From NCBI GenBank assembly GCA_964016885.1, contig OZ024760.1, positions 7,316,001-7,380,000 on the forward strand: a DNA stretch of 64,000 nucleotides, written 5' to 3'. This DNA is from Eledone cirrhosa. Taxonomy: Eukaryota. The notes beneath the pieces are model-generated. The model was not told the origin of the DNA. It ran no database searches and worked only from the letters and a program-made list of their open reading frames with translations. The position numbers and the translations under genes were made by a program. Below, piece by piece: positions 181 through 61,320 of the stretch. Each line of letters starts with the position of its first letter. Positions within the stretch are counted from its first letter, which is position 1.

Positions 181-223
181 ATATTGGACTAGTTTCGATG
201 TTATTACATCTCATCAGCAATAT
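181..223 (-). ncRNA. Minimal type I hammerhead ribozyme (inverted copy)
   Basis: Reverse complement of 1034-1076. Confidence 0.9.
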
Positions 224-1033
224 ATACCCATCTTCCGGCTTCTCTAGAGAATCGTAAAAGCACATATCGTTATATGCTTTTTCTATGAAAATTAGTAGTG
301 GGCAGACTAATTTGCATAGAACGTGAGTCATTGTACGCACCGGTTCAGCGGAAACGATAAAAACAAATAACGAAACGAAATTAAATTTCGTTTCGCTTCT
401 AACTCACTTTTGTATGACTGACACTTAAACAATTAAGTTAAAAGTGTACATCTACATATGTATACGGAAATATTAGTATGCATATAAATACACACATGTA
501 TACATATGTACATGTACTGAGTTTTTCCTGGACACTTTACTGTGAGTGTCCAGCTAGTCTGTATGTAACCAAACAGACAAACCGGGTTTTAGAGTCATAC
601 GGGTTTTCAAGGAAACACATTTCCTCTATTCTCCAATATGTTTCCTTGAAAACCCGTATGACTCTAAAACCCGGTTTGTCTGTTTGGTTACATACAGACT
701 AGCTGGACACTCACAGTAAAGTGTCCAGTGAAAAACTCAGTACATGTACATATGTATACATGTGTGTATTTATATGCATACTAATATTTCCGTATACATA
801 TGTAGATGTACACTTTTAACTTAATTGTTTAAGCGTCAGTCATACAAAAGTGAGTTAGAAGCGAAACGAAATTTAATTTCGTTTCGTTATTTGTTTTTAT
901 CGTTTCCGCTGAACCGGTGCGTACAATGACTCACGTTCTATGCAAATTAGTCTGCCCACTACTAATTTTCATAGAAAAAGCATCTAACGATATGTGCTTT
1001 TACGATTCTCTAGAGAAGCCGGAAGATGGGTAT

Positions 1034-1076
1034 ATATTGCTGATGAGATGTAATAACATCGAAACTAGTCCAATAT
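1034..1076 (+). ncRNA. Minimal type I hammerhead ribozyme
   Basis: atattg-CTGATGA-gatgt(aata)acatc-GAAA-ctag-TC^caatat. Perfect 6-bp stem I, 5-bp stem II, palindromic ACTAGT stem III, GUC cleavage after 1070. Confidence 0.9.
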
Positions 1077-1552
1077 TCCTGTCTGGCTCTCTGGAGAATA
1101 GAGGAAATGTGTTTCCTTGAAAACCCGTATGACTCTAAAACCCGGTTTGTCTGTTTGGTTACATACAGACTAGCTGGACACTCACAGTAAAGTGTCCAGT
1201 GAAAAACTCAGTACATGTACATATGTATACATGTGTGTATTTATATGCATACTAATATTTCCGTATACATATGTAGATGTACACTTTTAACTTAATTATA
1301 TATATATATATATATATATATATATAAAGAGAGAGAGAGAGAGAGAGAGAGAGAGAGAGAGAGAAAGAGAGAGAGAGAGAGAGATGAGATATGATAAACC
1401 CAGCCTAATCCAAGCCAGAAATAGTTCCAGCTGCTGTCTTTGTAGAACAATAAATATCTCACTTGCTTCTTTCCAGGAGGAAATGGTAAATTTTCTCCTA
1501 TTGATTCCTGATTTGGTGTATTGGAAGAATTCTATGAGACAAAAGACACAGA

Positions 1553-2830
1553 TGTTGTTGTTGTTGGTGGTGGTGGTGGTGGCGGTGGTGATGATGTTGT
1601 TGTTGTTGTTGTTGGTGGTGATGGCAGTGGTGGTGGTGGTGGTGGTGGTGGTAAAGGTGGTGGTGATGGTGGTGGTAGTGGTGGTGATGGTGGTGGCGGT
1701 GATGATAGTGGTGATGTTGTTGGTGGTGGTAGTGGTGGTGATGGTGGTGGTGGTAGTGGTGTTGTTGGTGGTGATGGTGGTGGTGATGGTGGTGGTAGTG
1801 GTGGTGATGGTGGTGGTGGTAGTGGTGGTGATGGTGGTGGCGGTGATGATAGTGGTGATGTTATTGGTGATGGTGGTGATAGTGGTGGTGATGGTGGTGG
1901 CGGTGATGATAGTGGTGATGTTGGTGATGGTGAGGGTAGTGGTGGTGATGGTGGTGGTAGTAGTGGTGGTGGTGGTGATAGTGGTGGTGTTGTTGGTGAT
2001 GGTGGTGGTAGTGGTGGTGGTGGTGGTGATAGTGGTGTTGTTGTTGGTGATGGTGGTGGTGATGGTGGTGGTGATGGTGGTGGTGATGGTGGTGGTAGTG
2101 GTGGTGGCGGTGGTGGTAGTGGTGTTGTTGTTGGTGATGGTGATGGTGGTGGTGATGGTGGTGGTGATGGTGGTTATAATGTGGTGGGGTGGGGTAAGGG
2201 AATGTGGTAAAAAGCTATTGTCAATAAAATTTCCGATCAACACTTCCACAAGATTTGGGAGACACACTCAGATGGTGGTGGGGGTGGTGGGGAAGGGTTG
2301 TATTGGTGCGGTGTGGGGTGGTTGTATTGGTGTGGTATAGTGGCAGTGGTTGTAGTGGTGCGAGATGGTGGTGGTGGTGGTTGTAGTGGTGGTGGGGGAT
2401 AGTGGCAGTGGTTGTAGTGGTGCGAGATGGTGGTGGTGGTGGTTGTAGTGGTGGTGGGGGATAGTGGCAGTGGTTGTAGTGATGGGGGCATGGGGGCGGC
2501 GGTGGTCTTGGTCATAGTGGTGGTGGGATGGTGAGGGGGGTAATGCTGATGGTGGTCATGGTGATAGTGGCGGGGATGGTAGTAGTGGTGGTGGTTGCAG
2601 TAGTGGTGGTTGCAGTAGGGGATGGGGGTGATGCTAATGGTGGTCAAGGTGATAGTGGCGGGGATGGTAGCGGTGGTGGTGGTTGCAGTAGTGGTGGTTG
2701 CAGTAGTGGTGGTTGCAGTAGTGGTGGTTGCAGTAGTGGTGGTATTAGTAGGGGATGGGGGTGGTGGTGGTGGGATGGTGATGGTAATGGTAGTGGTAGA
2801 AGTAGTGGTGGTAGTAGTAGTAGTGGTGGT
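1553..2830. repeat. (GGT/GAT/GTT)n low-complexity array
   Basis: Degenerate trinucleotide repeat, giving spurious poly-V/G/T ORFs. Confidence 0.95.
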
Positions 2831-3756
2831 AGAGATGGCCGTAGCAGTAGTAGCACCAGTCCACTGGCAACAGATGTCAAAATTAACTTAGCAACTGCAA
2901 CAACAACAACAACAACAACAACAACAACACACAACACAATACTCTTAATCCTCCCTTCTAACTCTATGTAATCAATTTCCATTCCTCCTCTTCTTCTCCT
3001 CCTCCTCCTCCTCTTCATCTCTCAGTAACAACCCCCCCTCCCTCTCTTACACTTCTCTTCTTTCTTTCCCTTTCTCACTTTCTAACTATTTTTCCTTCTA
3101 TTATAAATATATATATATATATATGTGTATATATATATTTATACCTCTGTGTATGTGTGTGTATATATATGTGTGTGTGTACAAGTGTACATACATACAT
3201 GTGTATATATATATATATATATATATATATATATATATATATAGATGTGTGTGTGTGTGTATGTGTGTATATATATATATGTGTGTGTACAAGTGTACAT
3301 ACATACAGACATGTGTATATATATATATATATATATATGTGTGTGTGTGTGTGTGTGTGTGTGTGTATGTGTGTGTATATATATATATAAGTGTGTACAA
3401 GTGTACATACATACATACATGTATATATATATACACATATATATAGGCACATATATATCATATGTGAGACCTGGGTTCAATCGGAGGTATCCACAGTAAG
3501 TAAGGTACTCAATACATTAGTAGAGTGTAAACATCAAATTTAATATAGAAATGGCTTCTACAGGACTAGAACTGTTTCATTAGAAAGAAATCAAGTCACA
3601 CACAATGCTTTACATTGACTATCTAGCTATTCAGAGTCGATCTGCGGCACCAATAATACCCAGGTCATAGGCCATCTCTGAATCAAATATTTAAAAATAT
3701 TTTCTTTGTTTGTTGTATGCCATAATTCCTTTATTGATTAAGTGATTGTGCAATTC

Positions 3757-59776: not shown

Positions 59777-59844
59777 CTCTGTCTGATGAACGATCTAGAC
59801 GTATTTTAATATTATCTAGGGTCCTGAAACCTTTGGTAATGGAG
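59777..59844 (+). ncRNA. Type I hammerhead ribozyme
   Basis: ctctgt-CTGATGA-acgatctaga...tctagggtcct-GAAA-cc(ttt)gg-TA^atggag, 6-bp stem I, GUA cleavage after 59838. Confidence 0.72.
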
Positions 59845-60463
59845 TAGTTATATATTGTGTTGTTCACTTTCTAATTATATATATATATATATAAACTAAT
59901 ATATATATTATATATATTAGTTTATACACGGCTCAGAAATATTTCCTTCTTCGAGCTAATTCCATTGTAAAAGAATTCATTACACTTAATAACATATATA
60001 TATAGTTATGTAATAAACAACATAATGTTGTTTATTACATAAATTGTTTAAACAACATATGTTGTTTATTACATAACTATTAAGCTCTGTTACCTACATA
60101 GAGCACTCTTTTTTCCTGGACTTTTCCGACGGAATTACTTCATTCACACACACATATATATATATATATATATATAAATTTTTAAGCTTATTGAATCCCA
60201 ACAAATTAAATATAACTTCTGCATATATATATATATATATATATATATATATATATATGAAAAAACAATGTTACCTCTGATCGAGACGAAGCGCAAGTGT
60301 ATTTGAATGTTGATATATGTGTATATATGTTTGGTAATTCGGAAGGAAAAGCAAAGAAAAAAAAGTGTTCTATGTATAGAACAGAGCTATTTAATTATAA
60401 AGTGAACAACTTTGTGTTCACTTTCTAATATGTGTGTGTATATATATATATATATATATATAT

Positions 60464-60660
60464 ATAGGAACCAGTAAGACCCCGACGGCTGAGCTCAAGC
60501 CGTTTCGACGGCTAATTCTAGACAGAATTAGCCGTCGAAACGGCTTGAGCTCAGCCGTCGGGGTCTTACTGGTTCCTATTACCCACTCTACTACCCCAAG
60601 TATTGAGTACTTTGGTGTGTTATGGTCCACCTGGTTCCTTACCACATTTCCTTCGTTATA
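60464..60660 (+). mobile_element. Short TA-embedded element with a fold-back end
   Basis: Palindrome at 60464-60579 followed by the same tail as 20055-20251. Confidence 0.75.
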
Positions 60661-60974
60661 TATATATATATATATATATATATATATATATATATATATA
60701 TATATATATATATATATATATGTATATATATATGTATATATGTATATATATATGTATATATGTATATATATATGTATATATGTATATATATATATATATA
60801 TATATATATATATATATATATATATATATGTATATATATATGTATATATGTATATATATATGTATATATGTATATATATATGTATATATGTATATATATA
60901 TATATATATATATATGTATATATATATATGTATATATATAGATATATAGATATATATATGTATATATATACAAA

Positions 60975-61320
60975 AGTTCTATTTAAAATTGTTGGGATAC
61001 AACAAGTAAATATTTTTATAACTGATATAAAGCACTCGACAAGTATTTGGAGTAGATATACGATATTAATAAATGGAAACTATATTTATAAAACCATATT
61101 TATTTCATTATACATATCTTAGGGATACCAAATTAAATTATGGTATGCCTTCATCAGACAAAATACAATATATAACAGTTTTACAAATAAGTTTTGATGT
61201 ACCCTTTTAAAGTGCAACCATTATTTTTGGAAGCCATCTGGATAGTGAATTGGTATCCCTGAAATATGTATAATGAAATAAATATGGTTTTATAAATATA
61301 GTTTCCATTTATTAATATCG
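60975..61320 (-). mobile_element. TA-embedded non-autonomous element (family of 7070-7290 and 28405-28670) with a decayed hammerhead and inverted end
   Basis: CTGATGA and stems at 61101-61165, with GAAA mutated. 61250-61320 is an inverted copy of the 3' half. Confidence 0.6.

Follow-up and report, generated by a model that had tools for sequence, protein, structure and literature searches.

The stretch of DNA analysed here, the window, comprises 64,000 nucleotides of Eledone cirrhosa (GCA_964016885.1, contig OZ024760.1, positions 7,316,001 to 7,380,000 of the forward strand) and is part of a 3.0-Gb assembly. Its left part carries exons of the GABA transaminase gene ABAT on the minus strand, and a Penelope-like element (PLE) with a frame for reverse transcriptase (RT) and GIY-YIG endonuclease lies at 51–54 kb. 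In addition, the window contains 15 sites which a prediction made from the letters alone (the original prediction) had named as a layer of hammerhead ribozymes from several families. The layer is real: each of the 15 sites is present and is part of a repeat family that bears hammerheads. Very probably, the motifs are type-I hammerheads located in the terminal repeats of TA-targeting PLEs and in one 471-nt tandem element, scattered as short, dead-on-arrival cDNAs and predicted to cut weakly. This reading is built on the motifs, the pairing and covariation of their stems, the links of three families (A, C and E) to RT–GIY-YIG frames, the (TA)n flanks, the inverted arms and two distinct 3′ ends.

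A strict type-I descriptor yielded 7 matches in the window, against 0.01 on average when the sequence was locally dinucleotide-shuffled 100 times, and a descriptor tolerating stem II mismatches and one bulge yielded 9 compared with none in 30 shuffles. Motif density, which according to the original prediction should drop in shuffled sequence, was therefore 0–0.01 there and 7–9 in the real sequence. Nine of the 15 sites (181, 1034, 6731, 7109, 13758, 28569, 34153, 54723 and 59777) show the CUGANGA/GAAA/UH core with stems I–III in type-I order and are fully paired. The other six comprise four decayed motifs (3757, 5688, 61101 and 14880) and two with a 2-bp stem I (51517 and 54971). The earlier sorting into intact and decayed sites was thus correct for nine of the ten sites called intact but not for 3757, whose stem III is decayed; among those called weaker or decayed, 5688, 61101 and 14880 are indeed decayed, while 51517 is the normal form of its family and 54971 a diverged relative.

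The word CUGANGA alone occurred near chance level in the window (24 compared with 21.4 in shuffled sequence), so the signal resides in the pairing of the stems. Among the 150 of 193 Rfam matches listed for the window, the only hammerhead family was Hammerhead_HH9 (164–236 and 1021–1093), which scored 32.9 bits and stayed under the gathering score of 52 bits; the E-value scan was dominated by microRNA matches to TA repeats. A bare core at chance level and Rfam scores under threshold are what one would expect if the motifs were chance matches in AT-rich palindromic repeat DNA. However, a genome-wide pattern based on sequence only (core, 10–40 nt, GAAATATRTATM) gave 81,203 matches compared with 197 for the reversed control, and the stems were checked for pairing in 40 different motifs that had been selected on their sequence only. 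In stem I, positions 1–5 were paired in 38–39 of the 40, and stem II positions 2, 3, 5, 6, 7 and 9 in 37–40. The pair columns hold several types (A-U, G-C and G-U alternate), N7 is variable and H17 is never G. These compensatory pair types agree with the earlier claim that stems differ across families yet keep pairing. Position 4 of stem II is a C·C mismatch in 38 motifs and paired in none. Slid controls were high at several positions, the stems being AT-rich, and the 40 copies are related, hence the counts are not independent events; they back covariation without measuring it and support a structure under selection. Together, the shuffles, the genome-wide control and the pairing counts refute the chance-match explanation, to which we assign practically no probability.

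Stem III is a palindrome of one or two pairs (ACUAGU, AUAUGUAU or AUGAUCAU). Short palindromic stems III are described as the form working as a dimer (PMC4209133), and cleavage is predicted to be weak and to occur mostly in dimers.

For an estimate of the genomic background, 59 round-position stretches of 10 kb (589.6 kb in total; a 60th fell outside its contig) were searched and contained 34 fully paired motifs compared with 0–1 in five shuffles. This corresponds to about one motif per 17 kb or, scaled to the genome, approximately 173,000 motifs (95% Poisson interval from 120,000 to 241,000), the real interval being wider as matches are clumped and small chromosomes over-sampled. Schistosoma may be comparably hammerhead-dense, and we therefore claim no density record. 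The nine motifs of the window compare with 3.7 expected (P = 0.014 assuming independence, which does not hold), and four 10-kb stretches adjoining the window contained no fully paired motif. The window is only mildly hammerhead-rich, and the layer is a genome-wide rather than a local feature. (TA)5 was found within 260 nt downstream of 9 of the 15 sites compared with 30% of random positions (within 300 nt), and the element of site 181 ends in TA just outside the window, which bears out the TA bounding that had been described. By a rough sum, the hammerhead-bearing elements amount to approximately 8 kb or 13% of the window; the statement that much of the AT-rich DNA consists of PLE remnants was overstated. 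The sample also contained a further abundant hammerhead family (seven loci, 9 of the 34 matches) with a GUCA stem I and a GAAC/GGAC loop III. It is related to the motif of the 51–54 kb element (family C) but has a stem I of 4–5 bp.

The motifs at 181 and 1034 are the two arms of one inverted insertion (1..1297) of a 471-nt non-coding, retrozyme-like tandem unit. They are no PLE remnant but belong to a separate element. The right arm (635–1297) ends at a first 3′ site; the left arm, which continues for about 112 nt outside the window at its start, has its end 75 nt further along, this difference being termed the tail. Both ends of the insertion abut (TA)n. Each arm holds 1.4 tandem units, and window positions 1–1256 form a 98% palindrome. 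The hammerheads at 181..223 (minus strand, ABAT-sense, within the long inverted repeat) and 1034..1076 (plus strand, predicted cut after 1070) have a 6-bp stem I with a distal helix, a stem II of 4–5 bp and the palindromic stem III ACUAGU. No long open frame was found for the unit among the reading frames of the window, and its folding is strong (z = −10). A non-coding tandem with a type-I hammerhead in each unit is the layout of non-LTR (long terminal repeat) retrozymes. Genome-wide, there are 1,449 exact copies of the motif and runs of more than 20 units.

We mapped 28 distinct insertions of this retrozyme, 18 of which are inverted. When one complex locus is set aside, one arm ends at unit position 471 in 17 of 17 inverted insertions, and the second arm ends 66–75 nt beyond position 471 in all 17; the ends nearly always adjoin (TA)n. 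Such a pair of 3′ ends, one tail apart, is the signature of PLEs and was traced in vitro, for PAc, to two internal priming sites (PMC11167929). From this two-site tail we infer that the 471-nt retrozyme would be mobilised by PLE machinery. A PLE origin of vertebrate retrozymes has been argued from co-occurrence and homology of the pseudo-LTR (pLTR) (preprint 10.64898/2026.07.22.740005), whereas the octopod case rests on insertion junctions. Immediately 3′ of the cut site, 5′ ends of the retrozyme are at best slightly over-represented (informal count). An array of retrozyme units with a family C motif on either side was considered as a chimera and turned out to consist of neighbouring insertions.

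Family A comprises the motifs at 7109..7173 (minus strand, intact, in an ABAT intron in sense orientation; copies elsewhere are 98–99% identical and hence young), 28569..28633 (plus strand, intact, 96% identical to 7109) and 61101..61165 (minus strand, decayed by loss of GAAA, with 95% identity to the termini of a frame-bearing copy). Its relatives at 6731..6797 (minus strand, intact, likewise intronic and ABAT-sense) and 54723..54807 (plus strand, intact, an insertion separate from the adjoining PLE) are 72–80% identical. Outward-facing motif pairs enclose RT–GIY-YIG frames in five of 12 family A loci examined, and the window copies match the termini of such loci at 85–95%. Copies end approximately 48–60 or 135–153 nt past the motif, which gives two 3′ ends; no single sharp 5′ boundary was found among the copies mapped. 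Family E is represented by the core-broken copy at 14880..14976 (plus strand), part of the terminal repeat of a PLE whose RT–GIY-YIG frames are flanked by inverted or tandem motif pairs in four other loci. In one of these, the frame has 786 codons stop to stop within a partial tandem of 3,118 bp. Two short inverted inserts of family E were absent from the original prediction: 20025..20287, with only the 3′ half of a ribozyme, and 60428..60688, with two half-ribozymes. The placement of motifs at the ends of microsatellite-targeted PLEs thus held for the families of 7109, 28569 and 61101, with 6731 and 54723 as relatives, and of 14880.

Proteins of families A and E are 42% identical. Their frames show the marks of the Hydra clade, namely RWR, DKT, a divergent RT4, a CxCX5C linker and no CCHH, although only RT4 and the linker are visible in the 5′-truncated frames of family A. 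Both families insert into (TA)n and are, judged by these protein motifs, Hydra-clade PLEs. Assignment to Neptune was ruled out, the motifs and the supplement of Craig et al. indicating Hydra. In five loci representing families A and E and their relatives, the tails downstream of the hammerheads share ACTC...GAGT(G/A)C in otherwise different sequences, a candidate for a hairpin recognized by the RT.

The complete family E motif has a stem I of 4–5 bp, a long stem II and a stem III of 5–6 bp, and such stems suggest that this ribozyme could act as a monomer. By hand count of the first 100 listed among 7,222 core matches, 76 read UUGANAA (U3-A8) and 24 CUGANAA, CUGANGA being absent, and N7 is found as each of the four bases. 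Copies with C3-G8 are rare yet exist (10 of the 17 matches of one pattern search). The U3-A8 core is a known hammerhead variant, reported from S. mansoni (PMC4209133). The 3′ half of the motif has 60,041 exact matches in the genome, eight times as many as the 5′ half lying just 55 nt upstream. In an unbiased sample together with the window, 25 of 29 copies begin 2–19 nt before GCCGTCGAAAC; the remaining four extend across the core, and no copy stops at a distance of 20 to 93 nt. Roughly seven of every eight family E copies thus start within the ribozyme. Genome-wide, a non-T base precedes AGTCCAG in 12,121 copies. Among 30 AGTCCAG copies inspected, 27 begin exactly there and three are full-length members of a TCAGT subfamily. 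As the sequence at this start, T(T/C)AGT, resembles an initiator, a transcription start inside stem II is preferred over a stop of reverse transcription. A cap-derived G before the first base was not established (G 46, C 48, A 6 by hand count of the first 100 listed), the inverted arm serving as template for most of these letters. With a transcription start inside stem II, family E RNA would begin with a half-hammerhead unable to cut alone, whose missing half the 3′ repeat could supply or which could be made complete in trans, and the approximately 60,000 genomic half-ribozymes would be by-products.

The PLE at 51–54 kb belongs to a third family, C, with a tandem unit of 4.15 kb. It spans 51264..54707 on the minus strand, is young and 5′-truncated, carries a 110-nt inverted arm at 54598–54707 and encodes an RT and, C-terminal to it, a GIY-YIG endonuclease characterized by CCHH and a CX4CxxC linker. 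The frame had been called intact; in fact, its 915 codons (51826..54573, minus strand) join the family frame at residue ~298, so that the start codon and the first ~297 residues are missing. This copy does not combine the complete frame, start codon and upstream repeat of an autonomous element. Over the 3′ end of the family, the 40 best other copies are 99–100% identical. The full frame has approximately 1,200 amino acids with an Asn-rich N-terminal region and, in the window copy and two further loci, an insertion of ~60 amino acids between RT motifs 3 and 4. The nearest named relative, from Octopus vulgaris, is 68% identical, and nearly all of the 138 database relatives are unnamed. In its linker (CX2-5CxxC) and CCHH, family C matches Nematis/Neptune by layout, not by tree, and it is possibly an unnamed PLE lineage.

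The family C motif (12,206 genome matches) is found at 51515..51556 on the minus strand and has a full core with an extra U after A9, a 6-bp stem II and a 2-bp proximal stem I. A diverged motif of the same type at 54971..55012 (plus strand), also with full core and 2-bp proximal stem I, is truncated by a repeat resembling a short interspersed element (SINE). A 2-bp proximal stem I is the norm for this family, and a 2-bp stem I has been reported for the D. virilis PLE hammerhead (PMC4209133). Reading the motif as type III with an upstream UGGYR arm was rejected, since it lacks UH and relatives with a 4–5-bp stem I fix the type-I register. The original prediction had presented the 51–54 kb element as the kind of driver behind the motifs. 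Because its protein shares only 25–35% identity in short stretches with the Hydra-clade proteins of families A and E, it is not the driver of their motifs and drives at most its own 51517/54971 type.

The remaining motifs belong to families sharing with A and E the layout of stem II only. The old-family motif at 3756..3813 (plus strand) has a broken stem III, which relatives of 78–85% identity keep, reading GAAA-TATATA-TA. The motif at 34153..34225 (plus strand) is intact and of an older family, with copies 87–91% identical. At 59777..59844 (plus strand), an intact motif has a 3-bp stem III and the layout tabulated for Hydra-1_Obim; its relative at 5688..5762 (minus strand) is decayed, having lost U16.1. 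The intact motif at 13758..13815 (minus strand, AUGAUCAU palindrome) lies within a TA-bounded element of about 290 nt. Many young copies of this family (window 13700–13990 and relatives) start 63 nt upstream of the core, and its tail sits as a separate inverted arm, a product resembling twin priming.

The same 290-nt arrangement of the 13758 family recurs at 84–95% identity in at least 14 loci, with no frame in the 12 loci examined. This would suit elements that are not one-off cDNAs but SINE-like non-autonomous PLEs, propagating themselves by transcription and re-mobilisation from their own loci, as indeed holds for the 471-nt unit. As a general explanation of the short elements we consider it possible but unlikely: in families A and E, short copies are 85–95% matches to the ends of frame-bearing ones, and those of family E have a fixed internal start and lack the upstream half, as cDNAs reaching the RNA 5′ end would.

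We thus favour dead-on-arrival PLE cDNAs. PLE protein would nick (TA)n DNA, and reverse transcription would be primed at two internal sites near the 5′ end of the RNA, as in vitro for the anole PLE. Such internal priming would yield mostly short cDNAs of the terminal repeat, landing in (TA)n and accumulating by the hundred thousand. The 471-nt unit would be cut from multimers, possibly circularised by its own ribozyme, and would borrow the PLE machinery. The ribozymes would be retained to process the element RNA in its tandem or circular form, acting weakly, in dimers or helped by protein, and would benefit the elements and not the host. For the PLE PAc, cleavage was protein-assisted, requiring the protein, and dispensable for insertion (PMC11167929). 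Several points weigh against this interpretation. Linking families to autonomous PLEs succeeded for A, C and E, but no autonomous frame was found for the families of 3757, 13758, 34153 and 59777/5688 in 9, 12, 13 and 17 loci, respectively. Four PLE loci compared with the retrozyme showed no similarity to its sequence (best E = 0.52), and the clades were assigned by motif, not by tree. In nearest-neighbour models, which ignore tertiary contacts, the active folds lie 9–20 kcal/mol above the free ensemble, that of the retrozyme dimer 9 kcal/mol. Of nine retrozyme dimers from Xenopus, eight failed to cleave in vitro (preprint 10.64898/2026.07.22.740005). Finally, expression, cleavage and RNA circles are predictions from sequence.

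Site 181 and other motifs lie within ABAT. Exons were located on the minus strand at approximately 5950..6006 (GYNHP...), 7461..7580 (NTGSIVFF...SIPLG) and 13013..13146 (...EPRCPVVNTKIPGPKS...), the last being the most upstream one found; the first exon was not located in the window search. The gene continues left of the window, and one exon is 89% identical to Octopus proteins. The original prediction had placed four intact motifs on the ABAT sense strand. This is so for 181, 6731 and 7109, which are intronic and sense, whereas 13758 would be intronic only if an exon not located here lies further upstream, as the splice acceptor implies. These four placements have led us to consider that the hammerheads cut ABAT pre-mRNA and thereby modulate GABA transaminase, a host effect or co-option. 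Moreover, 7109 and 6731, which are 378 nt apart, can pair with each other, and the resulting double hammerhead is 5 kcal/mol more favourable than the two monomers. Yet this structure still lies 15 kcal/mol above the free ensemble, and 181 would be buried in a hairpin of more than 600 bp and 98% identity whose antisense arm is transcribed first. The insertions in ABAT introns are young repeats, the excess of intact sense motifs (4 compared with 1 antisense) is not significant, and the next 30 kb left of the window, with the rest of ABAT, contain no strict match. A function of this kind is therefore very unlikely, and the effect of the motifs on ABAT pre-mRNA is likely to be small. Sequencing runs over 5900–7650 were not used as evidence: one resembled low-coverage DNA, with repeats covered and exons not, and three were near-empty. 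A second ABAT gene with much shorter introns lies 4.5 Mb away on the same contig (11791123–11799723, plus strand).

Further repeats in the window include near-perfect or long inverted repeats at 44051–44266 and 60722–61625, which together with 1–1256 would give long double-stranded RNA if transcribed. Minisatellites at 7658–11076 (50 bp, 68 copies) and 37023–38163 (47 bp, 24 copies) are related to a segment of a common SINE-like repeat, and a 29-bp satellite occupies 39720–43556 (130 copies, 94% matches). A 539-codon frame at 20570–22189 (plus strand) encodes the C-terminal half of an RT and, downstream, a Cys/His motif; it looks L1/Tx1-like.

That the ends of TA-targeting PLEs carry hammerheads, Octopus included, is already in the literature. 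Reportedly, Lunse et al. may already have described some of the stem variants in 2017. What is added here is scale, with an estimated 173,000 intact motifs and 60,000 half-motifs in one genome, and testable material. A young retrozyme with a PLE priming signature at its junctions bears on the question of what mobilises animal retrozymes, and 5′ ends inside the ribozyme of family E bear on the unresolved role of PLE hammerheads. The intronic pair 7109/6731 is a natural case of two motifs that in principle could build a double hammerhead within a pre-mRNA, and young inverted intronic insertions would give long double-stranded RNA in animals of a type known for heavy A-to-I editing. Only tentatively do we combine three statements, doubting that all hold together: that the retrozyme would be inserted by PLEs as multimers, that family E would be transcribed from inside a monomer-competent U3-A8 ribozyme, and that this genome would rank among the densest animal hammerhead loads counted.

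In the literature covered, which included few subscription papers, octopod hammerheads were neither counted nor described by family other than in Craig et al., and Repbase may cover some variants; in a term search, ribozymes were not mentioned in the main text of the 2026 O. vulgaris repeat annotation (PMC13282606). Craig et al. (2021, PMC8557442) already listed a (TA)n target and a hammerhead for Hydra-1_Obim of Octopus bimaculoides. Families A and E share with the Hydra-clade PLEs described there the C-terminal GIY-YIG, RWK/RWR, DKT, the divergent RT4, CxCX5C and the lack of CCHH, as well as the (TA)n target, a type-I hammerhead near the 3′ end, inverted 5′-truncated arms and the tail. In contrast, Hydra-1_Obim has four co-terminal copies and no pLTR, whereas many subfamilies at tens of thousands of copies occur here; stem II is long with a fixed C·C mismatch, and family E has a 5–6-bp stem III and the U3-A8 core, which is found in none of the Hydra motifs in File S2. 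Family C resembles Nematis/Neptune PLEs in its C-terminal GIY-YIG, CCHH and short CX4CxxC, as in the Nematis rows of Fig. S2 of Craig et al., but differs in the Asn-rich frame of ~1,200 amino acids and the RT3–RT4 insertion of ~60 amino acids, reportedly missing from canonical C-terminal PLEs. The minimal PLE hammerheads of Cervera and de la Pena (2014, PMC4209133) are likewise type I with a short palindromic stem III and a large stem II, predicted dimers, opposite-strand pairs and mostly solo truncated copies; the counts given there, obtained with another descriptor, are 2,000–9,000 per genome compared with our estimate of approximately 173,000. The largest count found, 126,247, is from axolotl, with a genome about ten times larger (PMC7229834). 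Like metazoan non-LTR retrozymes (PMC7229834; 10.64898/2026.07.22.740005), the 471-nt unit is non-coding, tandem and highly structured and bears a single type-I hammerhead in each unit, whose stem III has one pair and a palindromic tetraloop; unlike them, it shows no pLTR homology to the PLEs tested and enters (TA)n in the form of inverted multimers with the two-site tail of PLEs.

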